Below, in pieces: positions 6,338-53,750 of a stretch of DNA of 64,000 nt. The position numbers and the translations under genes were made by a program. The notes under the pieces were generated by a model. The model did no database searches. It worked only from the letters and a program-made list of their open reading frames with translations, and was not told the origin of the DNA. This stretch comes from Candidatus Poribacteria bacterium (GTDB lineage: Bacteria; Poribacteria; WGA-4E; JAJDTR01). The stretch's first letter is position 1, and each line of letters starts with the position of its first letter. The DNA is taken from NCBI GenBank assembly GCA_965204085.1, contig CBDBEE010000003.1, positions 1,449,981 to 1,513,980 of the forward strand, given 5' to 3'.

Positions 6338-8323
6338 ATGTCCGTAAACCTCATAATTCTACTACTGATTTCTCCGCTGGTTGGATTCCTCATCAATGGT
6401 CTGTTTGGCAACTGGTTGAGGAATACCGAGAAGCTGAGTGGGTGGATTGCCTGCCTCGCTGTCCTAGTATCACTTATCTGCTCGCTCATCGTATTTACTC
6501 ACGTCAAAGGCGGTGCGGAGTTAAACCAGACGCTCTACCAGTGGATTGCCGCCGAATCTCATGAGTACAGCAAAACCGAACTAGGATCTGGCGAGTCGGC
6601 TACCCCTTTATTCGAGTGGATTACCGGAAATTTTGCGTTCAACATCGGATTTCATGTGGATTCGCTAACCGCCGTCATGCTGCTGATTATCACGGGTATC
6701 GGTTTTCTCATCCACGTTTACTCAATAGGTTACATGCATGGGGATGCGGGTTATACGCGCTACTTCGCCTATCTCAACTTGTTTGTGTTTGCGATGTTAA
6801 TCCTCGTCTTGGCGGACAACTATCTGATGATGTTCGTCGGATGGGAGGGGGTTGGACTGTGTTCCTATCTGCTGATAGGCTTTTGGTACGAGAAAAAATC
6901 CGCAACCGACGCCGGTAAGAAAGCCTTCATCGTCAACCGAATCGGAGATTTCGGCTTTCTACTGGGAATGTTTACGCTTTTCGCTGCCTTCGGCACGCTG
7001 GATTTTATTCCTATCTTTGAGCAAGCCGAATTCATCGAGCGCGTCGAATCAACCGGTTCCAACCTCGTGTTTGGGGCAAGTACGCTCGCCGTTGCAACTT
7101 TGCTGCTCTTTGTCGGCGCCGTGGGAAAATCGGCACAGATTCCGCTGTATGTCTGGCTGCCCGATGCGATGGAAGGCCCAACTCCCGTTAGCGCTCTCAT
7201 TCACGCTGCGACAATGGTCACCGCGGGTGTCTATATGGTGGCGCGTTCGTCGGTGTTATTTGACCTCGCCGGTACGGGTGATGTGGTAGCGTGGATCGGC
7301 GTTCTCACAGCGGCCTTCGCCGCCATCATGGCGTTAGCTGCGAACGACATTAAGCGGGTTCTGGCGTATTCTACCGTGAGCCAACTCGGATATATGTTCG
7401 TGGGTGTGGGCATTGGCGCCTATGCGTCCGGAATTTTTCATCTCATGACACACGCCTTTTTCAAGGGCTTGATGTTCCTTACCGCCGGCAGTGTCATGCA
7501 CGCCATGTCAAACGAACTTGACATGCGGAGGATGGGGGGCTTGAGATCTAAACTTCCAATCACGCACATCACATTTCTTGTCGGGGCGCTCGCCATTTCT
7601 GGGTTCCCACTTCTGAGTGGTTTCTGGAGCAAAGATGAAATCCTGCACAGCGCTTGGGAGAAGGGGCATCCTATCATTTATGTGATAGGATTGGTGACGG
7701 CTTTCCTCACGGCGTTCTATATGTTTCGCCTCATTTTTGGGACGTTTTACGGCAAATCGCGTGTCGATTCGCTGGTTCACCCGCACGAGTCGCCGTCCGT
7801 CATGTGGGTGCCTTTGGCGATCCTTGCCATTCCGTCGGCGCTCATCGGTCTTGTCCTATTAAGTTGGAAAGGGCACGACAGCGCATTCCATCATTTTATC
7901 GGCGGCGTCTTTTCTCACCACGGCGAAAAGGCAGCCCATCACGCCGACAATGTGCTGCTCTTCATGGCAATTTCGTCAATCGTGGGTATCGCGGGGATCG
8001 CTTTGGCATGGGTGAAGTATCGGGATTGGACGCCGCTGGCGCAACCACAATCGGCGATTCATAAGTTGGCTGCGGAAAAGTTCTACGTTGATGAAATATA
8101 CAACGCTGTCTTCGTTCAGCCCATCAAGAAGGTCTCTCAATTTGTCCTGTGGCGCGGTTTGGATGTCTCAATCATTGACGGGACTGTGAACGGTGTCGCT
8201 TTTGTCGTGCGTACCGTTGGAGGCTCGCTGAGGCGGTTTCAGACGGGTGTTGTTCAATCGTATATTGTGTCGATGGTTATCGGAATCATCATTTTTTTGG
8301 CGTACTACCTTTTTATTCGATAA
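6338..8323 (+). CDS. nuoL: NADH-quinone oxidoreductase subunit L (NuoL/ND5).
   Basis: 661 aa Mrp antiporter-like subunit. WLPDAMEGPTPVSALIHAATMVTAGVY motif. Confidence 0.9.
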   Translation: MSVNLIILLLISPLVGFLINGLFGNWLRNTEKLSGWIACLAVLVSLICSLIVFTHVKGGAELNQTLYQWIAAESHEYSKTELGSGESATPLFEWITGNFAFNIGFHVDSLTAVMLLIITGIGFLIHVYSIGYMHGDAGYTRYFAYLNLFVFAMLILVLADNYLMMFVGWEGVGLCSYLLIGFWYEKKSATDAGKKAFIVNRIGDFGFLLGMFTLFAAFGTLDFIPIFEQAEFIERVESTGSNLVFGASTLAVATLLLFVGAVGKSAQIPLYVWLPDAMEGPTPVSALIHAATMVTAGVYMVARSSVLFDLAGTGDVVAWIGVLTAAFAAIMALAANDIKRVLAYSTVSQLGYMFVGVGIGAYASGIFHLMTHAFFKGLMFLTAGSVMHAMSNELDMRRMGGLRSKLPITHITFLVGALAISGFPLLSGFWSKDEILHSAWEKGHPIIYVIGLVTAFLTAFYMFRLIFGTFYGKSRVDSLVHPHESPSVMWVPLAILAIPSALIGLVLLSWKGHDSAFHHFIGGVFSHHGEKAAHHADNVLLFMAISSIVGIAGIALAWVKYRDWTPLAQPQSAIHKLAAEKFYVDEIYNAVFVQPIKKVSQFVLWRGLDVSIIDGTVNGVAFVVRTVGGSLRRFQTGVVQSYIVSMVIGIIIFLAYYLFIR

Positions 8324-15574: not shown

Positions 15575-15702
15575 TGCTTAGGATTTCCGTACACGAGTCA
15601 AAACATAATCGTAACTGTTTAGTTTATCAATCTGTTTTGGGAATGTTGGTTCGTCGTGCTGCAGTTTAATCCCGTTCCTACACCATCAAGCGAATGAATA
15701 GT

Positions 15703-15759
15703 GAGTGCGATAGAGATCCCCGAGCGTAATGTAGGAGCGATCTCCAGGTCGCGATTTCC
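15703..15759. repeat. Composite REP-like element (family 2 core reversed plus family 1 GTAGGAGCGATCTCC).
   Basis: gtgcgatagagatccccgag cgtaat gtaggagcgatctccaggtcgcgatttcc inside the unusual 336 bp atpF-atpH gap. Confidence 0.5.
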
Positions 15760-15909
15760 TGCTGGCGCCTAAGTTCTGGACTGAACTAAACAATTACACA
15801 TAATCAACAGAATAGCCGTAAGGTAGATACCGCGCGTCATCAGGTTGTAAGGACAACGGTCTTACGGCAGGATTTTGTCACAATCACTAGAGATCGGAGA
15901 GTATACCCG

Positions 15910-16500: not shown

Positions 16501-18030
16501 ATGGCAAGAGAAGTTAGACCCGATGAAGTTTCAAATATACTAAAACAACAATTGCTGCAATTCAATCAACAGGTCGACGTTTACGATTCCGGGACAGTCT
16601 TGGATGTTGGTGACGGAATCGCACGCGTGCATGGGCTTGCCAATGTCATGGCGAGCGAGATGATTGAATTTCCGAACGATGTGTTCGGAATGGCGTTCAA
16701 CCTAGAGGAAGACAACGTCGGTTGTGTGCTTTTCGGTGAAGACAAATTGATTCACGAAGGCGACCTCGCCAAACGGACCAATCGATTGCTCGAGGTTCCC
16801 GTTGGTGAAGGGTTACTCGGGCGGGTCGTCAATGCGCTGGGGCAACCCATCGACGGAAAAGGAGAACTTGGCACTAGTGAGACACTTCCCGTCGAGCGAA
16901 AAGGATTGGGCATTGTCCAGCGTCAGCCTGTCTCCGAGCCGCTGTATACCGGTTTGAAAGCCATTGACAGCATGACAGCTATCGGGCGCGGACAGCGGGA
17001 GTTGATCATCGGTGACCGTCAAACGGGCAAAACCGCCATTCCGATTGACACAATAATCAATCAGAAAAACACCGACGTGTTCTGTATTTACGTAGCGATA
17101 GGTCAGAAGGGATCGACAGTCGCACAGGTTGTTACCACACTCGAGCAGCACGGCGCAATGGACTACACCATCGTTGTCTCGGCGCCTGCCAGTGAGCCGT
17201 CACCTCTCCAATATCTTGCGCCGTATACCGGCACGTCAATGGGAGAATACTTCCGTGACAAGGGGCAGCATGCACTGATTATTTACGATGATCTCACCAA
17301 ACACGCGTGGGCGTATCGGCAAATGTCCCTACTCTCGCGGCGACCGCCGGGGCGAGAAGCCTATCCCGGTGATGTCTTCTACCTGCACTCAAGATTGCTT
17401 GAGCGATCGGCGAAACTCAGTGACGAGTTGGGAGCCGGTTCGCTGACTTCGCTGCCTATCATCGAGATTTTCGAGGGTGATTTGACCACTTACATTCCTA
17501 CCAATGTAATCTCAATCACGGATGGGCAGATTTATCTAACTTCTGAACTGTTCAATCAAGGTGTGCGTCCGGCAATTGATGTCGGTACGTCGGTATCGCG
17601 TGTCGGCGGGGACGCGCAGACAAAAGCCATGAAAGCCGATGAGGTGGCAGGTACGCTCAAGCTGGATCTAGCCAGTTTCCGCGAAGTTGCCGCATTCGCG
17701 CAGTTCGGTTCCGATCTTGACGCATCCACACAATCCCAGCTCCGCCGTGGCGAGCGACTGGTGGAGTTGCTTAAGCAGCCGCAGTATGAACCGATGCCAG
17801 TGGAAAAACAGATAGTCTCAATCTTCTGTGGATCAACGGGATATCTTGACGATATCGAAGTGGCGGATGTGTCGAGATTTGAGACCGAATTCCTTACCTA
17901 CATGGATAGGAATCATGCGGAACTCCTCAAGGAAATCGCCGAAACTGGCGTTTTGAGCGATGAACTTATTGATGGTCTTCATGAGGCGGTGAAAAGTTTC
18001 AAGGGGCGGTTCAAGGTGAATGAGGCATAG
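16501..18030 (+). CDS. atpA: F0F1 ATP synthase subunit alpha.
   Basis: P-loop [18 protein letters not shown] and conserved alpha-subunit sequence throughout. Confidence 0.95.
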
Positions 18031-18040
18031 AGGTGACGAA

Positions 18041-18244
18041 GTGAAACTAAAAATCATTCTCCACGAAGCGGAAGAGGGTGGATATTGGGCAGAAGTGCCC
18101 TCAATTAAGGGATGTGTGAGTCAAGGTGAGACGCTTGACGACTTGATTGAGAACATCTCTGAGGCAATAGAAGGTTGTTTATCTGTGGATATCAGTGATT
18201 GCGATGTCGGCGAGAAAGACACAGTCATGGAGATAGCCGTTTGA
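18041..18244 (+). CDS. hicB: HicB-family antitoxin (UPF0150-like).
   Basis: KLKIILHEAEEGGYWAEVPSIKGCVSQGETLDDLIENISEAIEGCL matches the HicB N-domain pattern. GTG start. Stop overlaps the hicA TTG start (gtTTGAaat). Confidence 0.65.
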   Translation: MKLKIILHEAEEGGYWAEVPSIKGCVSQGETLDDLIENISEAIEGCLSVDISDCDVGEKDTVMEIAV

Positions 18245-18447
18245 AATCCCTGACGGGAAAAGAGTTTTGCCGTTTATTGAATAGGAAAGGTTGGGAATTG
18301 AAGCGAATCAAGGGCAGTCATTACATTTTCGCCAAGGATGCACCTTCTGCCCGAATCTCGGTTCCCGTTCACGGGAATAAAACTCTCAAGCAAGGCTTGC
18401 AGCGGCATCTCATGAAAATAGCGGGTATTGATGAAAGTGAATTGTAG
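18241..18447 (+). CDS. hicA: HicA-family mRNA interferase toxin.
   Basis: LKSLTGKEFCRLLNRKGWELKRIKGSHYIFAKD...VPVHGNKTLKQGLQRHLMKIAGI is the YcfA/HicA pattern. TTG start at 18241. Confidence 0.65.
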   Translation: MKSLTGKEFCRLLNRKGWELKRIKGSHYIFAKDAPSARISVPVHGNKTLKQGLQRHLMKIAGIDESEL

Positions 18448-18468
18448 CAGGGAGTTCAGGAGTTTATA

Positions 18469-19335
18469 ATGGCGACATTAAGAGAAATTAGACGCCGTAT
18501 CGCAAGTGTCGAGAATATCAAGCAAGTAACAGAAGCGATGCGGGTGGTTGCAGCCGCAAGGCTGCGCCGCGCTCAAGAAAATATCTTGGCGACACGACCG
18601 TTCGCGGAAAAGTTCAACGCAATTTTAAGCCACTTGATTGCACAGATTGAAAATCCGACCCATCCGTTGTTGGAAAATCGGGATTTAAAGAATGTGTGTC
18701 TCATTTCTATCAGCGCCGATCGGGGGTTGTGTGGAAGTTTTAACAGCAATGTGATTCGCTCAACAGTGGAAAGGGCGCAGCATTATCAGGATGGCGGCGC
18801 TGCCGTAAAAATCATCTGTGTAGGCAGACGCACTCGAGATTATTTTGTGCGGCGAGACTATGACGTCATTGCGGAATACGTCAACATATTTCGAGATCTT
18901 AAGTTTGAATCGGCGGTTGACATTGTTCATGAGTTTGAGCATCTTTATACTGAACTGCAGATTGACAAAGTAGAGGTGATTTACAACAATTTCAAGTCTG
19001 CCATCCTGCAAACAGTTCTCGTCGAACAGTTGTTGCCGCTTTCTCCTGAAGCTCCAACGGGTGACGAACTCTTTCTCGACTATCTGTATGAGCCGGGACA
19101 GGAGGAAATCTTCCAGTCCGTATTGGCGAAACACCTGAATATGCAGATGTGGAAGGTTCTACTGGATTCCAACGCGGCGGAGCAGGCAGCGCGGATGGCA
19201 GCCATGGAAAACGCGACACGTAATGCCACGGATCTCATTGACGAACTGATTTTACAGCGCAACCGCGCGCGACAAACCCAGATTACAACGGAAATCTCCG
19301 AAATTGTGAGTGGCGCAGCGGCATTGGAGGGTTAG
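18469..19335 (+). CDS. atpG: F0F1 ATP synthase subunit gamma.
   Basis: MATLREIRRRIASVENIKQVTEAMRVVAAARLRRAQE is the canonical gamma N-terminus. Confidence 0.9.
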   Translation: MATLREIRRRIASVENIKQVTEAMRVVAAARLRRAQENILATRPFAEKFNAILSHLIAQIENPTHPLLENRDLKNVCLISISADRGLCGSFNSNVIRSTVERAQHYQDGGAAVKIICVGRRTRDYFVRRDYDVIAEYVNIFRDLKFESAVDIVHEFEHLYTELQIDKVEVIYNNFKSAILQTVLVEQLLPLSPEAPTGDELFLDYLYEPGQEEIFQSVLAKHLNMQMWKVLLDSNAAEQAARMAAMENATRNATDLIDELILQRNRARQTQITTEISEIVSGAAALEG

Positions 19336-19345
19336 AATTTTAGTT

Positions 19346-20218
19346 GTGTTGAGAAATCTTATCAATTCTTCCATTGTTGTATTGTTCTTGACGGGTGGGT
19401 GTTTGTCCGCATTCGGTCATGGAGAAGCATCCACTCTGTTGGAGGATGTCAACAACGATGGTGTGGTGAATATTTTAGACTTGGTTATGGTGGCGAACGC
19501 CTTTGGGCAACCTGTCGATCGACATTCCGAGCAAAATCCGGATGTGAATCGTGACGGCACCGTTAATGTGTTGGACCTTGTTCGAATTGCCAGCCGCATG
19601 GGCGAAACCGCGGGAATCGATAACTCAACTTATCACGATATTCAGGACTATGTATTCAATAAGAGTTGTGCAACGAGTTACTGTCACGCAGCGCCGACAA
19701 ATGCCGGCAATCTGAATCTCACAAACAGGATTTCGTACCACGATTTAGTGGGGCGTGTACCGCAGAACCTCGCTGCGGCATCGGCGGGGATGAAGTTGGT
19801 TGATCCGGGCAACCCGGACAACAGTTTTCTTTTGACAAAACTCGTAGGACCAACATCTGCGGCACAGGGGGGACGCATGCCTTTGGCTGCTGGACCGCTG
19901 CACAGTGGGAAAATAGATGCAATCCGAAAGTGGATTGCCGCTGGGGCATCTCAGACTGATAAACTTCCTGGCGTCGGCGATCTCAGCGTGTTGCGCGATC
20001 CGCTCGAGACCTTTGAGCCACCTCCGGCGCCGCTGCCTGGTGAAGGTTATCAGCTCCGTTTACCACCCTTTATCATTGAACCCGGCACGGAGTTGGAAGT
20101 CTTTTACTCTAGACAGATTACCGACGCAACTGGACAACCGTTGCAGGAGGATATCTTCGTCAATACGTACGAATTGTGTATCCTACGGGCAGCTACCACT
20201 TCATACTGTATCGGATAA
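19346..20218 (+). CDS. Secreted protein with dockerin-like repeats and a PSCyt1-like domain, plus the start of a copper type II ascorbate-dependent monooxygenase (PHM/DBH-like) domain. Probably the 5' part of a frameshifted gene.
   Basis: Signal peptide. DVNNDGVVNILDLV and DVNRDGTVNVLDLV repeats. C..CH-like CATSYCHAAP...SFLLTKLVGP...MP...IRKWIAAGA resembles PSCyt1. Tail PPFIIEPGTELEVFYSRQ...EDIFVNTYEL resembles the PHM N-domain start. Reading frame ends at 20218. Confidence 0.5.
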   Translation: MLRNLINSSIVVLFLTGGCLSAFGHGEASTLLEDVNNDGVVNILDLVMVANAFGQPVDRHSEQNPDVNRDGTVNVLDLVRIASRMGETAGIDNSTYHDIQDYVFNKSCATSYCHAAPTNAGNLNLTNRISYHDLVGRVPQNLAAASAGMKLVDPGNPDNSFLLTKLVGPTSAAQGGRMPLAAGPLHSGKIDAIRKWIAAGASQTDKLPGVGDLSVLRDPLETFEPPPAPLPGEGYQLRLPPFIIEPGTELEVFYSRQITDATGQPLQEDIFVNTYELCILRAATTSYCIG

Positions 20219-20961
20219 CTGAAAAAGGGATAGAGGATGATATACTCAGCGTCGGAGTGACACCGGGGGTCGGGGTAAATCCCGAAGACTCTTTCCGAGT
20301 ATTAGATCCTGCGAATCCACAAGCACTCGGCAACTTTGGAAAGCATCGCGTCTACATCACGGGCACACAGACGAGCGGGAAGACGGTTTATCAATTTCCC
20401 GATGGTGTGGCTCTTCGGCTCGCAGGGGACACCATTTACGACCTGAACGCCCATTTCGTGAATTTGTTAGGTACCGAAGCGATAGAGGGAGAGGTCTACG
20501 TCAATTTCTACACCATTCCGCCAGAGGAGGTCAAGCACGAGGCAGTGGAGATTTTCTCCGCCAACACCGACCTGTTCGTTCCACCAGGAACGACGCGCGT
20601 GGCGATGAAAACCGAAACCGTAGAGGAGGAGATTGAGCGGCGCGGCTACGATCCGAACACCGTGTTGAATCTCCTTATGATTACGTCTCATATGCACCGG
20701 CACGGCGAGTTGTTTGAGATTTTTCAGATGTCGACAGGGAGTTTGCTGCATCGAAGCGTGGCTTACGACGATGCGCCAATCACGGTGTTCAATCCGCCGC
20801 TGGTGCTTGGTACAGACGATGGGATGACCTATGAATGCACGCATAATAATTACGATCGGGATGTTCCACTTACTTTCGGATTCACGTCCGAGGATGAGAT
20901 GGCTATAATCATGGGGTATTACTATCCCACAACTGAAAGTGTTGATGTCGCAAGTGAGTGA
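20176..20961 (+). CDS. PHM/DBH-like copper monooxygenase catalytic region. Probably the 3' part of the same frameshifted gene.
   Basis: H8, H93, H172-x-H174 (TSHMHRHG) and M242/246 have spacing like the PHM CuH/CuM ligands. GTG-initiated ORF with no signal peptide, in the -1 frame relative to the upstream ORF, overlapping it by 43 nt. Confidence 0.5.
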   Translation: MYPTGSYHFILYRITEKGIEDDILSVGVTPGVGVNPEDSFRVLDPANPQALGNFGKHRVYITGTQTSGKTVYQFPDGVALRLAGDTIYDLNAHFVNLLGTEAIEGEVYVNFYTIPPEEVKHEAVEIFSANTDLFVPPGTTRVAMKTETVEEEIERRGYDPNTVLNLLMITSHMHRHGELFEIFQMSTGSLLHRSVAYDDAPITVFNPPLVLGTDDGMTYECTHNNYDRDVPLTFGFTSEDEMAIIMGYYYPTTESVDVASE

Positions 20962-21040
20962 GAGGATGAATTTGAGAATTGCGATCTCAAAGCGTCCCAT
21001 GGGCAAGTTACCCAAACCACGAATTAGAGGAGGATTACCA

Positions 21041-21862
21041 ATGGTATTTGGACTAAGAGGAACACTTATCGTTACTTTGATAGCAATGATTGCTTTATGC
21101 GGCTGTGAGGAGGCCACAAATTTATTGGCAGGCGCGTTGTCGCCCGAGAATCAGGTGGTAGATCCGATTCCGGTTGAAGTAATGACTATGGAGGATACGC
21201 CAACAGAACCTATAATGGATCCCGTAGAAGTGGCAGCGATACCGGTCAAAATGGTGTGGCTAATCAACTATCCGCTGGGCGGAAAGGAGGATTATGTCGC
21301 ATATATCGCGTCCGTAGCGCCTGTGTTGCTTGCTCCGGAAGAGCTTAATCGGGCTGCATCCTACGACAATGTTGACGGTTCCAATCCGCACCGCCTTGTT
21401 GAGTACGAATTTGACAGTTTTGCCGATTTGGCGCACTATCTGAACCGTCCTGAGATCGCGGCAGTCGCTGCCGATTTGCCAAACTACACCAGTAGCGCGA
21501 GTACGCATATATTTATTCAGCGCGGCGATTATTCAAAGAACGAGAGCACCAGCCGGCAGGTTAAAACCGTCTACTTGGTTGACTATCCGCTTGGAGGAAA
21601 AACTGAGTATCTGGAATGGATTGCTTCTATAGCGCCGATGCTACAAGCCCCCGAAGAGGTAAAGCGGATAGCATCCTATGACAACTATTATGGAGTGTCC
21701 CCGCATCGGTATGTAGAATTCGAGTTTGATAGCTACGAAGAGGCGAATACGTACCAAGAACTCCCGTACGTACAGCAGCATGTTAATGCGGAGCTACCTA
21801 ATCGAACCAGCCGCACGTCTGTCCTAACCTTTGAGTTGCGATCTGATTACATCAACGAATAG
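21041..21862 (+). CDS. Lipoprotein of unknown function built from two tandem paralogous domains of about 100 aa.
   Basis: ATG at 21041 after AGAGGAGG. Signal with LIAMIALCGC. Repeat 1 VWLINYPLGGKEDYVAYIASVAPVLLAPEELNRAASYDN...EYEFDSF and repeat 2 VYLVDYPLGGKTEYLEWIASIAPMLQAPEEVKRIASYDN...EFEFDSY. Confidence 0.5.
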   Translation: MVFGLRGTLIVTLIAMIALCGCEEATNLLAGALSPENQVVDPIPVEVMTMEDTPTEPIMDPVEVAAIPVKMVWLINYPLGGKEDYVAYIASVAPVLLAPEELNRAASYDNVDGSNPHRLVEYEFDSFADLAHYLNRPEIAAVAADLPNYTSSASTHIFIQRGDYSKNESTSRQVKTVYLVDYPLGGKTEYLEWIASIAPMLQAPEEVKRIASYDNYYGVSPHRYVEFEFDSYEEANTYQELPYVQQHVNAELPNRTSRTSVLTFELRSDYINE

Positions 21863-21935
21863 TCGGGTATATACTCTACGCTGTTGGACGTTGCGTTTTT
21901 AAGAGTCAAGAAATGGAGCATGAGTTTTGCCGGCG

Positions 21936-21985
21936 GTAGGAGGGAATTCCGATTCCCGACCGTCGCGATTCGGAGATCGCTCCTA
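21936..21985. repeat. REP-like palindromic element, family 1 doublet.
   Basis: GTAGGAGGGAATTCCGATTCCCGAC CGTCGCGATTCGGAGATCGCTCCTAC. 5' GTAG and terminal CTAC, hairpin-forming. Nearly identical copy at 36139-36193. Confidence 0.55.
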
Positions 21986-22170
21986 CAAACCTTCGGTGCA
22001 CAATTGCGCAGAATTAACCGGTGCTAAGTATAGGTGTCTTGATGACAGTTTCGCCCTTCTCTCTAATGATGCGAGTTGGGTTAAGAATGGACGGAAATTG
22101 CAGATTTGGAAGCTAGTCTCCGCTGAAAAGGAATGCATGCGGATCTGGATGAAACGATTGGATTCTGAGC

Positions 22171-22563
22171 ATGACAAAGCCCATCATCATAGATCAGGAA
22201 GTGCTATCGTGGGAGGGGTGGGAAGATGCGGAAGTCGCTGCCAAGAGCGCGATACGTTGGAAGATTCTAATTTCCAGCGAGCGAGGTCCAAGCGCAGGGC
22301 TAGTTACCGGTTTGGCGGAGTTTCCAGTCGGCACTCGACTGCCACTTCATCACCACGAACCTCCGGAGACCTATTACATCGTCAGTGGGCGGGGCAACAT
22401 GGTAATTGACGGTCATGAATCAGACATCGGACCGGGGTCTACAGTCTACATCCCGTCTAATGCCAAACACGCTGTATGGTGCACCGGAAATGAGCCGTTG
22501 GTTTTCGTGTTTTCCTTTGCGTGCGATCGATTCGACGAGATTGTCTACCACTTCGACGAGTAG
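22171..22563 (+). CDS. Cupin-domain protein.
   Basis: LPLHHHEPPETYYIVSGRGNMVIDGHE...GSTVYIPSNAKHAVWCTG has the two cupin motifs G(X)5HXH and G(X)5PXG...H. Confidence 0.65.
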   Translation: MTKPIIIDQEVLSWEGWEDAEVAAKSAIRWKILISSERGPSAGLVTGLAEFPVGTRLPLHHHEPPETYYIVSGRGNMVIDGHESDIGPGSTVYIPSNAKHAVWCTGNEPLVFVFSFACDRFDEIVYHFDE

Positions 22564-22597
22564 TCGGATTGTGAAGGGGGCTATTTAAAGAAACATA

Positions 22598-23071
22598 ATG
22601 CCCTACGATGTCGAAAAACAGATTCAGGAGGCGATGGAACGGGGCGACTTCGAGAAGTTGCCCGGCAAGGGGAAACGGCAGGAGTTGAAAGTAAACCCGT
22701 TTGTTCCGAGTGAAACCCGCATAGTCAACCAGATGCTCAAAGACAACGGATTTGCACCGAATTGGATTGAGGTAGACAAAGAAATTCGTGCCGAGTGCGA
22801 ACAATCCAGAAAGATGCTGGGGAACATCAAACGGCGCCGCCGACAGCTAGAAGCAGCGATTCGTGCCCAACCACTCAAAAGCGACAGGGTACGTCGGGGT
22901 TTTGAACTTGAGCGAAAACGGGCGCTAGAGACATACATAAGCCAACTGAAAGGGCTTAATCAAAAGATTCTCAGATATAATCTTACAGCGCCAGGGCGCA
23001 GTAGACAGAAGTCTATGTACAACCTTGATGACACGATAGCTCAATTTCAGAAGGAGTACCCGAGCCTTTAG
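22598..23071 (+). CDS. DUF1992 (DnaJC28-like) domain protein.
   Basis: IQEAMERGDFEKLPGKGKRQELKVNPFVP...MLKDNGFAPNWIE matches the conserved DUF1992 N-terminal pattern. Confidence 0.55.
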   Translation: MPYDVEKQIQEAMERGDFEKLPGKGKRQELKVNPFVPSETRIVNQMLKDNGFAPNWIEVDKEIRAECEQSRKMLGNIKRRRRQLEAAIRAQPLKSDRVRRGFELERKRALETYISQLKGLNQKILRYNLTAPGRSRQKSMYNLDDTIAQFQKEYPSL

Positions 23072-23133
23072 AGTTTGTTCGAGTGATAGATGAAAAAGCC
23101 GTTTTTGGACATTTGAGGCTATTACTTGTGGGA

Positions 23134-23180
23134 TCTCTATCGCATTCGCTATTGGTGGTTTGATGGTCACTAGCGCTTTG
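23134..23180. repeat. Family 2 interspersed repeat.
   Basis: cttgtgggatctctatcgcattcgctattggtggtttgatggtcac, at the right edge of the accessory island before atpD. Confidence 0.5.
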
Positions 23181-23294
23181 AAAGGCTGGTGTGCAATGCG
23201 CACCCTACGAGTCTAGCGTCCATTTCCGCAAGAAGTACCCTAGTAGTAAAAGGATAGATAAGTCAGAACTAGAAATGATATGTACGATTTTTAG

Positions 23295-24719
<1,425 letters not shown>

Positions 24720-29399: not shown

Positions 29400-29872
29400 G
29401 ATGGACGCAGATGTAAAGGGAGAAGGAAGGTTGGAGAAGTATATGGGAAGGATGGAAGATTGGAAGGGTGGAAGAAACCATTGTCTGAATCACGGATTAA
29501 GCGGATTAAAGGATTTCACGGATTAAAGCCGCTCAATTGGTAGGGTAATGCGATTTGAAACCTTAGCTACCAGAGGATAAAATCAGTGTATTGATGGTCA
29601 AGATTCTATCGATGTGGACTGAGGTCCCCACGTTTTAAAGAAAAAACTCAGTTTCATCACGAACTTGCTTTTACAGATTGGATGTAAAATGAATGGCACT
29701 ATTTCAGGCCGACAAGACGCGTAACGGAGAGGATTCCATCAAAGATTGGAAACTGAGATTAGGCGTTTGGAGATGGTGAGAGGGGAATCTCTATCGCACA
29801 GGATTTTCTATCAGGACTATCTATAGCCTTGGGATCTCTATCGCATTCGTTATTCGCTCACTTGATTGTTCC
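29400..29872. repeat. Composite repeat: GGA-rich tract, CACGGAT x3, then two family 2 units. Right flank of the PhyH-like gene.
   Basis: gggagaaggaaggttggagaag...gggaaggatggaagattggaagggtggaag... gtctgaatcacggattaagcggattaaaggatttcacggattaaag. Then gggaatctctatcgcacagg (29783) and cttgggatctctatcgcattcgttattcgctcacttgat (29827). Confidence 0.5.
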
Positions 29873-29877
29873 GAGTT

Positions 29878-30054
29878 TCGCTGTTTCTTCCAAATGAATT
29901 TCAATGACCTCCAGGAGATTTTTCCTTGCCTCTTCGATATCCTTTCCACAACTCACAACGTCTAGCTCCGGACAGTGGGCGACGTACATGTTGCCCTCTT
30001 TCCATATTTCTTCCGTTATAACAAGGTTTTTCACTGTAGCCTCCTCGATCTATT
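29878..30054 (-). CDS. Small HicB-like (UPF0150) antitoxin-fold protein. Under 60 aa, so not in the ORF track.
   Basis: Manual translation of the minus strand: VKNLVITEEIWKEGNMYVAHCPELDVVSCGKDIEEARKNLLEVIEIHLEETAKLGTIK. GTG start 7 nt after GGAGG. No adjacent HicA. Confidence 0.45.
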
Positions 30055-32572: not shown

Positions 32573-32893
32573 TTAAATCAACGCGACATTGATGCTTTCC
32601 TGCGTGTCGTGGTTTGACTTTGGACTCACGCGAATCTCAATGTGATAATCCAGTTTCCCCAATAGAGAAAAAAGATGGTCAATCGTAAAGTTCCTCAATC
32701 GGCCATTTCTCAAATCCGTCATTTTTGACCGACTCAGTCCGAGGAAATCCGACGCTGCCTTTTGGGTCATTCCCTCATCGGTAATTAGGCGGTTGATTTT
32801 GTATGCCAATTTCGCTTTTGCCAATCTTTCATCAGGGTTTGGTAGTTCCAAATCCTTGAACACGTTTCCTGAACTAGGGGTGTAGTCTGTCAT
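32573..32893 (-). CDS. XRE-family HTH antitoxin (COG5606-like), partner of the upstream COG4679 toxin.
   Basis: 106 aa. HTH MTQKAASDFLGLSRSKMTDL. Starts 4 nt after the upstream toxin stop. Confidence 0.55.
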   Translation of the reverse strand: MTDYTPSSGNVFKDLELPNPDERLAKAKLAYKINRLITDEGMTQKAASDFLGLSRSKMTDLRNGRLRNFTIDHLFSLLGKLDYHIEIRVSPKSNHDTQESINVALI

Positions 32894-32896
32894 AGC

Positions 32897-33262
32897 TTAT
32901 CTTCCTTTCGCTAATTCTTGAGCCATTTTCAACCGGCGCTTGATAAGATTAATTTCATTCTTGGGCGTCCCGGTACCCCATTTCGATTTCTTTTGAAAGG
33001 TGTGCAGTACGTAAATCGCATCACCGATTTTGGTGGTATACACCGCTCGATAGGTATCGCTTGCATAGTCACTTCGAATCTCCATGACTCCTGAAAACCC
33101 CTTTAGCGGTTTGGCTTTCGGATGTTTGTCTAAAATCTGTGCGATATAAAGCGCGTAGCCCATTTCATCTTGAACATCCGAGGGAAATTGCTTTAAATCT
33201 CTGTATGAAGAACCAACCCAAACTATAGGTTTCATCTTATCTATGTATTTGGTGTCTCTCAT
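32897..33262 (-). CDS. RelE/ParE-superfamily toxin of the phage Gp49-like (COG4679 / HigB-like) type.
   Basis: IVWVGSSYRDLKQFPSDVQDEMGYALYIAQ...GFSGVMEIRSD...YRAVYTTKIGDAIYVLHTFQKKS is the family pattern. Toxin-first order with an XRE partner. Confidence 0.55.
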   Translation of the reverse strand: MRDTKYIDKMKPIVWVGSSYRDLKQFPSDVQDEMGYALYIAQILDKHPKAKPLKGFSGVMEIRSDYASDTYRAVYTTKIGDAIYVLHTFQKKSKWGTGTPKNEINLIKRRLKMAQELAKGR

Positions 33263-33320
33263 AAAGGATTCTTCGCAAAAAACTTAACTTCGTATCTAGA
33301 TATCGCTACGCTCAGCGCAA

Positions 33321-33680
33321 TTATGAGATTGAGGTCAAATCAACATCAAGCGCCGCGGCGATTGCTTTCAACGTTTTGACGGAGCCGGACTTGCGCCCGG
33401 TTTCAATCTCCGCCAAGTAGGCGCGCTGAATGCCGCACTTGTCCGCCAGTTGCTGCTGGGTTAGACCTCGATGGTCGCGGTACACGCGAATCGGACTTTC
33501 CTCGTTAAGAATCAGGCGATTGACGACCTCACCGGGGTAGGTCTCCTCGTTGATGGTTTTGGCTTCGCGGAACTCGCGAATGTCTCTTAGCATCTCCGCA
33601 TCTTCCACAAATTGATTGTACTGTTCTCTCGGTACAAGGACGTATTCCTTGCCCTGTCTTTCGACGGTTTCAATATTCAT
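33321..33680 (-). CDS. XRE-family HTH antitoxin (HigA-like).
   Basis: C-terminal HTH LTQQQLADKCGIQRAYLAEIETG. Its ATG overlaps the end of the upstream RelE-like gene. Confidence 0.6.
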   Translation of the reverse strand: MNIETVERQGKEYVLVPREQYNQFVEDAEMLRDIREFREAKTINEETYPGEVVNRLILNEESPIRVYRDHRGLTQQQLADKCGIQRAYLAEIETGRKSGSVKTLKAIAAALDVDLTSIS

Positions 33681-33933
33681 CGGTATACACCTCCTCTGGA
33701 TCCAATTTTGATGATTTCGATGACGAGGACATCGTCATGAATCTCGTATAACACGCGCCAATCCCCCATCTGAGCCGGTATCCCTCCTCGCCCTCTAAAC
33801 GCGTTACATTGTTGTTCGGCGCGTAGGGGGACACGGCGAGTTGGTCAATCTTTCGCACAACGGTCTTCGCTACATTGCGCGGCATTCGCCGGAGTATCTT
33901 CGCCACGCTCGCTCGGTATTGAACCTTATACAT
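33670..33933 (-). pseudogene. RelE/ParE-family toxin with a -1 frameshift in a G5 tract near the 3' end.
   Basis: Reads YKVQYRASVAKIL...LEGEEGYRLRWGIG, then leaves the family. Adding one G to the run (plus-strand C5 at 33763-33767) restores GDWRVLYEIHDDVLVIEIIKIGSRGGVYR, with stop overlapping the antitoxin ATG as ATGA. Confidence 0.6.
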
Positions 33934-38904: not shown

Positions 38905-39282
38905 ATGGTTGACCCAAAAGACATTAAAGCAACCTGCGACGACATCGTCCGAGAGTTTGCCCCCCTGAAGGTTATCCTCTTCGGTTCCTATGCTTACGGA
39001 ACGCCTACCGAGGATTCGGATGTTGACCTGTTGGTGGTGATGCCCGTTCCGGAATCGCAAACCCGCAGCCTAGCGGTAGAGATTCGGCGACGTATCCCGC
39101 GCCGCTTTCACATGGATCTGGTTGTCCGGTCGCCGGAAGAGATTGCCTACCGCGTTTCGCATAACGACTGGTTTCTCCGAGAGGTGATGCAGGAGGGTCA
39201 GGTGCTTTATGAATCCGTTGACACTGGAGTGGTGACTGACAGTCACTCCCCCTTTGCAACGAAATGTCCTTCCGCTTCATAG
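38905..39282 (+). CDS. Nucleotidyltransferase-domain protein (minimal MNT, Pol-beta superfamily). No HEPN partner seen.
   Basis: GS...D.D motif: LFGSYAYGTPTEDSDVDLLVV. Confidence 0.6.
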   Translation: MVDPKDIKATCDDIVREFAPLKVILFGSYAYGTPTEDSDVDLLVVMPVPESQTRSLAVEIRRRIPRRFHMDLVVRSPEEIAYRVSHNDWFLREVMQEGQVLYESVDTGVVTDSHSPFATKCPSAS

Positions 39283-45312: not shown

Positions 45313-45753
45313 CTAACAAATACATCGAAGATATTTTTTGTTCTTCGGTGGTTGTACTTCCAGACGGGCTTCGGCGACGTACAACGGCATAAACTTCACT
45401 TTGTACTTGTGGTGTTGTCCGTACCACGCGCGTTTAAGCAACGACCAGAACCCTTCGAGTGTGTTGGTATGGATTTCGCCATCCACAAATCTTTCTGAAT
45501 GATTGACACTCTTGCGTTTTATGAACCTTTCCAGGCTCTTGTAAACGTTATTTTCGTCCGCCATGAGCGTTGACCCGCCCGTGTCCACTCTGGAAAGTAT
45601 AAAACTCAATGCCTCTCCCACCGTCACGCTACTTACCGCCTTGCCAACAACCTTCCCGCCACGCTCTACTGCTCCGATCGCCGGGGTTTTCTTGGACCGA
45701 TTCTTCTCCGGATTGTGCGTGTCATCATCATCTGGAGTGTTCGGCAACAGCAA
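45313..45753 (-). mobile_element. IS1595-family (ISXO2-like) transposase C-terminal fragment.
   Basis: MADENNVYKSLERFIKRKSVNHSERFVDGEIHTNTLEGFWSLLKRAWYGQHHKYKVKFMPLYVAEARL matches the C-terminal DDE_Tnp_IS1595 region. N-terminal zinc-ribbon and DDE core are absent. Confidence 0.6.
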
Positions 45754-53155: not shown

Positions 53156-53524
53156 TCATAGATTCAACGTATATCGTAAAGCGACGTCAATTTCGGCCAT
53201 GGGAACCGAACCAATAACGCGATCAATTGCCGACTCGCCGACCGTGGCAAGATTGTCAGTTAGCACTACCGAGTCCATGAGTAGCCCCGATTGTCGTCCT
53301 TCGGGAGTAGAAAGTAAAACGGCGACACGGCTGCGATGATTGGCACGGAACATCCTGCTGGAGATCATCGCCACAATTACTTGCTGGAAGCCGGTTTGAA
53401 GATTGTCAGCTTGAATAACCAATCCCGGACGCGATTTAGCAGTCAGTAAGTTGGAGTGTGGAAAGAGCAGCAAGATTACATCACCGCGTTTGTAGGCTGG
53501 ATTTGACCTCGTCATAGTTGTCAT
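53156..53524 (-). CDS. MazF/PemK-family endoribonuclease toxin.
   Basis: KRGDVILLLFPHSNLLTAKSRPGLVIQAD...QQVIVAMISSRMFRANH...VAVLLSTPEGRQSGLLMDSVVLTDNLATV is the PemK pattern. Overlaps the upstream antitoxin gene. Confidence 0.7.
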   Translation of the reverse strand: MTTMTRSNPAYKRGDVILLLFPHSNLLTAKSRPGLVIQADNLQTGFQQVIVAMISSRMFRANHRSRVAVLLSTPEGRQSGLLMDSVVLTDNLATVGESAIDRVIGSVPMAEIDVALRYTLNL

Positions 53525-53750
53525 AGGCGTCCATCTCAGGATTTTCCCAGTCTTCGGCAAAGAATTCCAAGCGCCCACGCAAAACTGCCGCTTGTGTTTC
53601 GTCAATACCGCGTTCCCGTAAATTTATGGAGTTGGATGCAAGAAAGGTAACAATTACGGGGGTGTCTTCAGATACATCATGAGGCGTTTTCGAAAGTTCA
53701 ATCTTGCCATCCCGATACACACCTTGAATAGTTGTTGACATAATCGTCAC
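53481..53750 (-). CDS. Putative antitoxin for the MazF-like toxin (DUF104-like N-terminus with acidic EDW tail).
   Basis: MSTTIQGVYRDGKIELSKTPHDVSEDTPVIVTFL and tail FFAEDWENPEMDAYDNYDE. Translationally coupled to the MazF-like gene. Confidence 0.45.
   Translation of the reverse strand: MTIMSTTIQGVYRDGKIELSKTPHDVSEDTPVIVTFLASNSINLRERGIDETQAAVLRGRLEFFAEDWENPEMDAYDNYDEVKSSLQTR

Follow-up and report, generated by a model that had tools for sequence, protein, structure and literature searches.

Class 2 hicBA toxin-antitoxin modules are defined by a hicB gene that comes first, a HicB of 60–90 aa that has no DNA-binding domain, and a HicA of 60–85 aa (PMC10865869). The two genes are closely linked and often overlap, which has suggested translational coupling (Gerdes 2024, mBio 15:e03293-23; PMC10865869). 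A hicBA pair whose HicB has no DNA-binding domain is the commonest bicistronic HicA arrangement, and Class 2 modules are experimentally unstudied, their transcriptional control being unexplained (PMC10865869). The best matches for both proteins described below are the HicAB systems of B. pseudomallei (6G26, 6G1C, and 4C26), E. coli K-12 (6HPB), and Y. pestis (HicA3B3; 4P78), in which HicB is 135–145 aa long and carries a C-terminal RHH/HTH domain that represses its own promoter (PMC10865869). In S. aureus, mazEF shares a transcript with the sigB operon, and this toxin-antitoxin pair lacks the usual form of autoregulation (PMC4041440).

We analyzed a 64-kb stretch of DNA (hereafter, the window), in which a hicBA cassette is wedged into an ATP synthase operon, separated from the upstream atpA by 10 nt and from the downstream atpG by 21 nt (Table 1). 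The AtpA sequence assigns the window to Candidatus Poribacteria. The operon runs in the order atpB, atpE, atpF, atpH, atpA, hicB, hicA, atpG, four or five unrelated genes, atpD, and atpC. The genes are packed so closely that the Shine-Dalgarno–like sequence of hicB begins on the final base of the atpA stop codon. Longer forms of both genes, starting from an ATG at 18020 (hicB, 74 aa) and a TTG at 18199 (hicA, 82 aa), were rejected as unsupported: nearly every homologue outside atp operons has 67 aa (HicB) or 68 aa (HicA). The short starts were preferred because the Pfam matches of both proteins begin downstream of them.

Table 1. Positions of the hicBA cassette, its neighbours, and further toxin-antitoxin and mobile-element genes in the window
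Feature	Position	Strand	Remarks
atpA (F1 alpha subunit)	16501–18030	+	Pfam ATP-synt_ab_N, ATP-synt_ab, ATP-synt_ab_C; upstream neighbour
atpA stop codon TAG	18028–18030	+	read from the sequence
GAGGTG, Shine-Dalgarno–like	18030–18035	+	5 nt 5' of the hicB GTG start
hicB, 67-aa HicB-like antitoxin	18041–18244	+	GTG start at 18041; TGA stop at 18242–18244
GGAG	18229–18232	+	within conserved HicB C-terminal codons (M-E-I-A-V), 8 nt 5' of the hicA start
TTGA, start/stop overlap	18241–18244	+	hicA TTG start (18241–18243) shares bases with the hicB TGA stop; read from the sequence
hicA, 68-aa HicA-family toxin (putative mRNA interferase)	18241–18447	+	TAG stop at 18445–18447
AGGAG, atpG Shine-Dalgarno	18458–18462	+	in the 21-nt hicA-atpG spacer
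atpG (F1 gamma subunit)	18469–19335	+	ATG at 18469; PF00231, E 1.8e-95; downstream neighbour
Lone 58-aa UPF0150/HicB-like ORF	29858–30034	-	24.5 bits, just under the Pfam cut-off of 27.3
HTH_37 gene	32573–32893	-	partner of the Gp49 gene
Gp49/DUF891 (HigB-like) gene	32897–33262	-	pairs with the HTH_37 gene; second toxin-antitoxin island, 32573–33933
Xre-type HTH_3 gene	33321–33680	-	preceded by an 87-aa ORF (33670–33933)
NTP_transf_2 (MNT-like) gene	38905–39282	+	
IS1595-family transposase fragment	45313–45753	-	
PemK/MazF-like toxin ORF	53156–53605	-	overlapping 89-aa ORF upstream (to 53750)

Each flank of the cassette (18031–18040 and 18448–18468) carries a Shine-Dalgarno–like motif, AGAGGT or CAGGAG, and both motifs resemble the single spacer, ACAGAGGTTTACC, of L004 (7528–7544), an outgroup locus that lacks the cassette. 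The pair of motifs may be a short target duplication from an insertion, or simply two ribosome-binding sites.

The downstream gene product belongs to the HicA family by profile, fold, and catalytic histidine. It matched the Pfam model HicA_toxin (PF07927) with an E-value of 6.2e-18 and a score of 65.1 bits (cut-off 27) that spans positions 1–58 of the 58 in the profile. The AF2 model (pLDDT 91.9) has an alpha-beta-beta-beta-alpha order (H6–15, E19–24, E27–32, E37–42, and H51–61), and a Foldseek search with this model returned B. pseudomallei HicA (6G26_E/F; TM 0.77–0.88, rmsd 1.3 Å), together with the T. thermophilus protein 1WHZ and Y. pestis HicA3 (4P78_C). In the sequence match, His27 aligned with the His24 position of B. 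pseudomallei HicA that is mutated (H24A) in 4C26/6G26. The G25-S26-H27 (G-S-H) motif is intact, with G25 and H27 invariant among 43 homologues, and all of the invariant residues of the family are present.

The upstream gene product matched HicB_lk_antitox (PF15919; E 1.1e-7, 32.5 bits against a cut-off of 27) and UPF0150 (PF21748; 29.3 bits against 27.3), a modest margin, with just the N-terminal 50 of the profile's 123 positions covered. Its AF2 model (pLDDT 73.7) has a beta-beta-beta-alpha-beta order (E3–9, E15–18, E26–29, H32–46, and E61–65), which is a partial RNase H-like fold of the HicB family. The best 12 Foldseek matches were all HicB structures, including 6G26_A, 6G1C, 6HPB_B, and 4P78_A. 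These matches span only the N-terminal domain of the targets, with a TM of about 0.4 normalized to the full-length targets versus 0.6 for the isolated N-terminal domain, and at the sequence level HicB aligned with residues 3–50 of the 142-aa B. pseudomallei HicB. Neither Pfam, nor alignment, nor Foldseek revealed a C-terminal HTH/RHH DNA-binding domain, the protein ending at residue 67. Because the matches in both sequence and structure cover only the N-terminal part, we concluded that this HicB has no DNA-binding domain. The solved HicB chains that it matched are 132–142 aa long; the window HicB lacks that domain, and its locus has no separate promoter region. Homology to the solved HicAB complexes suggests that HicB would bind and neutralize HicA. 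We named the two proteins on the basis of Pfam and structures because an NCBIfam search gave no match for HicA or HicB. The first-pass annotation, made from the sequence alone, had proposed a HicB-HicA pair with the antitoxin first; with all three Pfam scores above their cut-offs and both models matching solved HicA or HicB structures, this assignment stands.

With hicB first, products of 67 aa and 68 aa, and a 4-nt overlap, the cassette is a compact Class 2 hicBA. It shares the upstream hicB, the short proteins, and the overlapping genes with the modules described by Gerdes (2024); unlike Class 2 modules generally, it lacks its own intergenic region and lies inside an essential housekeeping operon. 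It does not fall among the classical (Class 3/4) autoregulating HicAB modules, as HicB has no DNA-binding domain and there are merely 10 nt upstream.

We surveyed the overlap in 82 loci from metagenomes and other contigs, whose HicA proteins are 60–78% identical to the window HicA. A 4-nt NTGA overlap with an upstream hicB homologue was present in 80 of the 82 cassettes (TTGA in 66, GTGA in 11, ATGA in 3, and CTGA in 0). Throughout, the first base of the hicA start codon doubles as the wobble position of the final HicB codon, which specifies Val or Ile; a C there, which would make a non-canonical CTG start, was never seen. The sequence ATGGAGAT was kept in nearly all of 80 cassettes from other contexts. 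The frequency of NTGA and the missing C at the wobble base argue that the overlapping hicA start is under selection, with the weak TTG as the preferred form. Such an overlap with a weak TTG would fit low, coupled translation of the toxin, and the TTGA overlap noted in the first reading of the window is indeed of a type that is read as a sign of translational coupling. Neither overlap nor gene order is new, both being standard for this hicBA subfamily and already described for Class 2 (PMC10865869). HicA/HicB homologues elsewhere number in the thousands, and those at 65–78% identity occur across many bacteria and archaea.

A consensus scan for sigma-70 promoters and terminators gave no match on the + strand between 17283 and 18961, although the consensus may be ill-suited to Poribacteria. 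Read-through from the atp promoter is the simplest reading, because the gaps on the two sides are 10 and 21 nt, signals are missing, and HicB has no repressor domain; hicBA would then be transcribed only within the atp mRNA. A position between atpA and atpG, as originally described, holds, with neither room nor signal for a promoter or terminator of the cassette's own. Alternatively, the cassette could be regulated independently of the atp operon, from a promoter within the atpA 3' end, and/or could itself serve atpG as an internal promoter. An autonomous module of this sort would be in keeping with Class 2 cassettes elsewhere, which follow intergenic gaps of 99–140 nt and must have promoters (like cassettes in ordinary intergenic settings have upstream gaps of 99 nt in L084 and 140 nt in L085), and promoter signals of Poribacteria may differ from the consensus that we scanned. 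We nevertheless regard such a module as unlikely: just 10 nt separate the stop codon of atpA from the hicB start, the final 750 nt of atpA contain no sigma-70–like match, the 3' end of atpA is still ordinary, strongly constrained coding sequence, and HicB has no DNA-binding domain with which to autoregulate.

A partial precedent for the proposed read-through is mazEF-sigB of S. aureus, likewise a type II pair co-transcribed with an adjacent host operon. By contrast with the window cassette, mazEF encodes another toxin family, stands at the head of the operon with its own promoter, and is conserved across the genus; moreover, the sigB operon is a stress regulon, whereas the operon in the window encodes an essential energy enzyme. 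Further upstream, the atpF-atpH gap (15575–15909; 336 nt of non-coding sequence) contains a promoter-like match at 15777–15804 and a terminator-like hairpin at 15844–15868, and upstream of atpH the atp operon may be transcribed as more than one unit.

To determine where the atp location occurs, we ran tblastn over 80 atp loci. Apart from the window, hicBA between atpA and atpG was found only in the closest relative in this set, L003 (AtpA 96% identical). It was missing from 20 Poribacteria-like atp loci (L004–L023; AtpA 79–90% identical), in which the atpA-atpG spacer is 17 to 339 nt long and has no recognizable gene, and from 59 more distant atp loci of other phyla; the median spacer among 79 atp loci was 43 nt. 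Given its absence from these 20 and 59 loci, the cassette is not a conserved component of the F1Fo ATP synthase operon. Exact-protein look-ups and a HicB search retrieved L001, L002, L083, and L166–L176, bringing the atp-located cassette to 16 contigs of one clade (the window, L001–L003, L083, and L166–L176), 15 of which come from samples other than that of the window. As the same two genes occupy the same place in 15 other contigs, the gene pair is far beyond chance.

The clade comprises five lineages that are about 85–90% identical in atpA DNA: the window group, L083, L176, L003, and the paired groups L166–L171 and L172–L175. L001 and L002 are 96–97% identical to the window in DNA, and the outgroup of the clade, at about 76% atpA DNA identity, does not have the cassette. 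The clade-only distribution therefore points to a single insertion, made in the common ancestor of this narrow group. Elsewhere, atp genes adjoined none of the 82 related cassettes (0/82). The location had been called unusual in the first-pass annotation, and it is, occurring in one clade among 79 atp loci and in none of the related cassettes; a limited literature search found no report of a HicAB or other toxin-antitoxin pair within an atp operon. The sole other candidate gene at the atpA-atpG position among the 79 atp loci is an 88-aa ORF in a 296-nt gap of L025, an Ignavibacteria MAG (7501–7796). The 339-nt spacer of the Poribacteria locus L021 (7504–7842) holds a short tandem repeat, GTTATCTGC, in four copies, and no convincing gene.

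We judged the frames of hicA and hicB in the clade by their own translations on the alignment. The full 67-codon frame of hicB was present in 15 of the 15 loci covering it. hicA is full length in three lineages, namely in the window, L001, L002, L083, and L166–L170. The absence of hicA gene calls in L002 and L166–L170 was rejected as a sign of toxin loss, since the 68-codon frame is intact there and the missing calls are an artefact of the gene table. In L003, a deletion of 7 nt breaks hicA and takes out helix alpha-2. The four copies in L172–L175, which are four assemblies from four samples, share the same 1-nt deletion and also have a Gly-to-Ser change in the G-S-H motif. Two further breaks, a 1-nt insertion in an A-run in L176 and a 1-nt deletion in L171, lie in long-read contigs (8x in L171), and both could be assembly errors. 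The toxin has thus been lost independently at least two times, and probably three.

Between lineages with an intact toxin, dN/dS was 0.05 for hicB (dS 0.68–1.02) and 0.14–0.28 for hicA (dS 0.17–0.30); in the same three pairs, it was 0.02–0.03 for atpA (dS 0.71–0.81) and 0.014–0.036 for atpG (dS 0.59–1.09). These values show that both hicA and hicB are under purifying selection where the toxin is intact. Between the window and L003, in which the toxin is broken, the dN/dS of hicA was 0.48 (dS 0.19). L166 and L172 are the most closely related pair in which one member has the toxin and the other does not; their hicB genes are separated by 2 synonymous and 6 non-synonymous substitutions, a neutral ratio from only 8 substitutions, by which hicB looks relaxed after toxin loss. 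The pattern fits the prediction for an active toxin-antitoxin module, in which the antitoxin would be constrained while the toxin works and both would be dispensable to the host. It lends indirect support to the ribosome-independent mRNA cleavage and growth arrest expected of a HicA toxin. The decay of the toxin in sister lineages could also mean that both genes in the window are dead and that their frames have survived only through recent insertion. This is highly unlikely, as the window frames are full length with the invariant residues, including G25 and H27, in place; dN/dS is 0.05–0.28 over a dS of about 0.7 in the neighbouring genes, and over that distance neutral decay would have disrupted a frame of 68 codons, an outcome seen in three sister lineages.

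hicA also showed conservation at synonymous sites. Across the three intact-toxin lineages, 44 of 57 degenerate hicA codons with a conserved amino acid were identical in DNA (0.77); the same measure was 0.51–0.54 in atpA, atpG, and hicB, where no stretch of equal size exceeded 0.68. This conservation could reflect RNA-level constraint or localized recombination. RNA folding gave no convincing structure at 18200–18480 (z = -0.57), so that predicted structure does not explain the signal, nor one at 18020–18260 that would explain coupling (z = -1.84); a search against Rfam at gathering thresholds found nothing in the whole window. A raised hicA identity between close strains was discarded as a special feature: the high-identity tract continues into atpG (~18000–18700), and because similar tracts occur elsewhere in a sliding-window comparison, it looks like ordinary recombination mosaicism. 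The synonymous signal across the three lineages is separate from this tract.

We considered whether HicA and HicB might have been recruited as a regulator that tunes the atp operon or ties growth arrest to energy status, either because toxin dosage tracks operon expression or because HicA cuts the atp mRNA and thereby adjusts the alpha-to-gamma ratio. The cassette does lie between a subunit needed in three copies and a subunit needed in one, both genes are under purifying selection in three lineages, and the synonymous conservation of hicA could reflect a role at the RNA level. Such recruitment is nonetheless very unlikely in our estimate: the insertion is limited to one young clade, with 20 Poribacteria-like and 59 other atp operons managing without it; hicA was lost independently in two or three lineages in which atpA and atpG are unchanged and as strongly constrained as elsewhere; and no stable RNA structure is predicted across hicA. 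The functional coupling of toxin dosage to the energy operon that the first-pass annotation had suggested fares poorly on the same grounds, the cassette being a young one-clade insertion whose toxin has been lost in two or three lineages. Because the clade-only insertion is young and the toxin was lost independently with the operon intact, a dispensable passenger fits better than a recruited regulator.

It is also improbable that the cassette has been co-opted as a sensor on the atp mRNA, with the synonymous sites of hicA marking an RNA element for translation of atpG or hicA. If this were true, labile HicB would be made from the atp mRNA alone, any collapse of host transcription or of energy-gene expression, as in phage takeover or starvation, would free HicA, and the locus would be a natural toxin-antitoxin module functionally integrated in an essential operon.

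We consider it likely that the locus is a promoterless Class 2 cassette hitch-hiking on atp transcription like a mobile module: a passenger on a strongly expressed essential operon, and neither a component nor a dedicated regulator of ATP synthase. In the clade ancestor, some 0.42 kb of promoterless DNA would have entered the short atpA-atpG spacer as a unit. The toxin-to-antitoxin ratio would then be set at translation: hicB has a good Shine-Dalgarno sequence and a GTG start, whereas hicA would rely on ribosomes finishing hicB and on the weak TTG start, so that less toxin than antitoxin is made. When the supply of HicB stops, for example when a phage or stress shuts off host transcription, free HicA would cleave mRNA and growth would stop. 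The threat from free HicA would keep hicB under selection (addiction), and defence by abortive infection is possible. On the best reading, the cassette is selfish or serves defence, and a link to energy metabolism is disfavoured. The passenger model leaves the synonymous-site conservation of hicA unexplained, and the hicB frame, which is open in every lineage even beside a dead hicA, could hint at some retained role. A natural promoterless copy that seems to persist under selection suggests that translational control, by the overlap together with the weak TTG start, is enough to restrain the toxin. The clade displays the life cycle of a module, from insertion into an essential operon through purifying selection and repeated toxin loss to a lingering antitoxin frame. 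Neither point changes the understanding of ATP synthase.

The interval between atpG and atpD (19336–23309) contains about 4 kb of non-atp genes: a dockerin and Cu2_monoox_C-like gene, a weak Dabb-like gene, a cupin gene, and a DJC28_CD (DnaJ-like) gene. As this block shows, the atp operon of these Poribacteria tolerates insertions. In many other Poribacteria loci, DJC28 likewise occupies the atpG-atpD interval, and others have different extra DNA at this position. At ~20172, the window has a single-base deletion relative to L002, L083, and L176 (TACGA-ATTG versus TACGAGATTG), which splits the dockerin/Cu2 monooxygenase-like gene into ORFs at 19310–20218 and 20176–20961; the split reflects either a genuine pseudogene or an error in assembly. 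The gene encodes a single product of 537–540 aa in L002, L083, and L176, and it is also fragmented in several long-read contigs among L166–L173.

Toxin-antitoxin genes abound in the genome, and at least four further such loci lie within the 64-kb window (Table 1). The lone UPF0150/HicB-like ORF has no detectable HicA partner nearby. Genomes of sponge symbionts have been reported to be enriched in toxin-antitoxin systems (PMC5649159).
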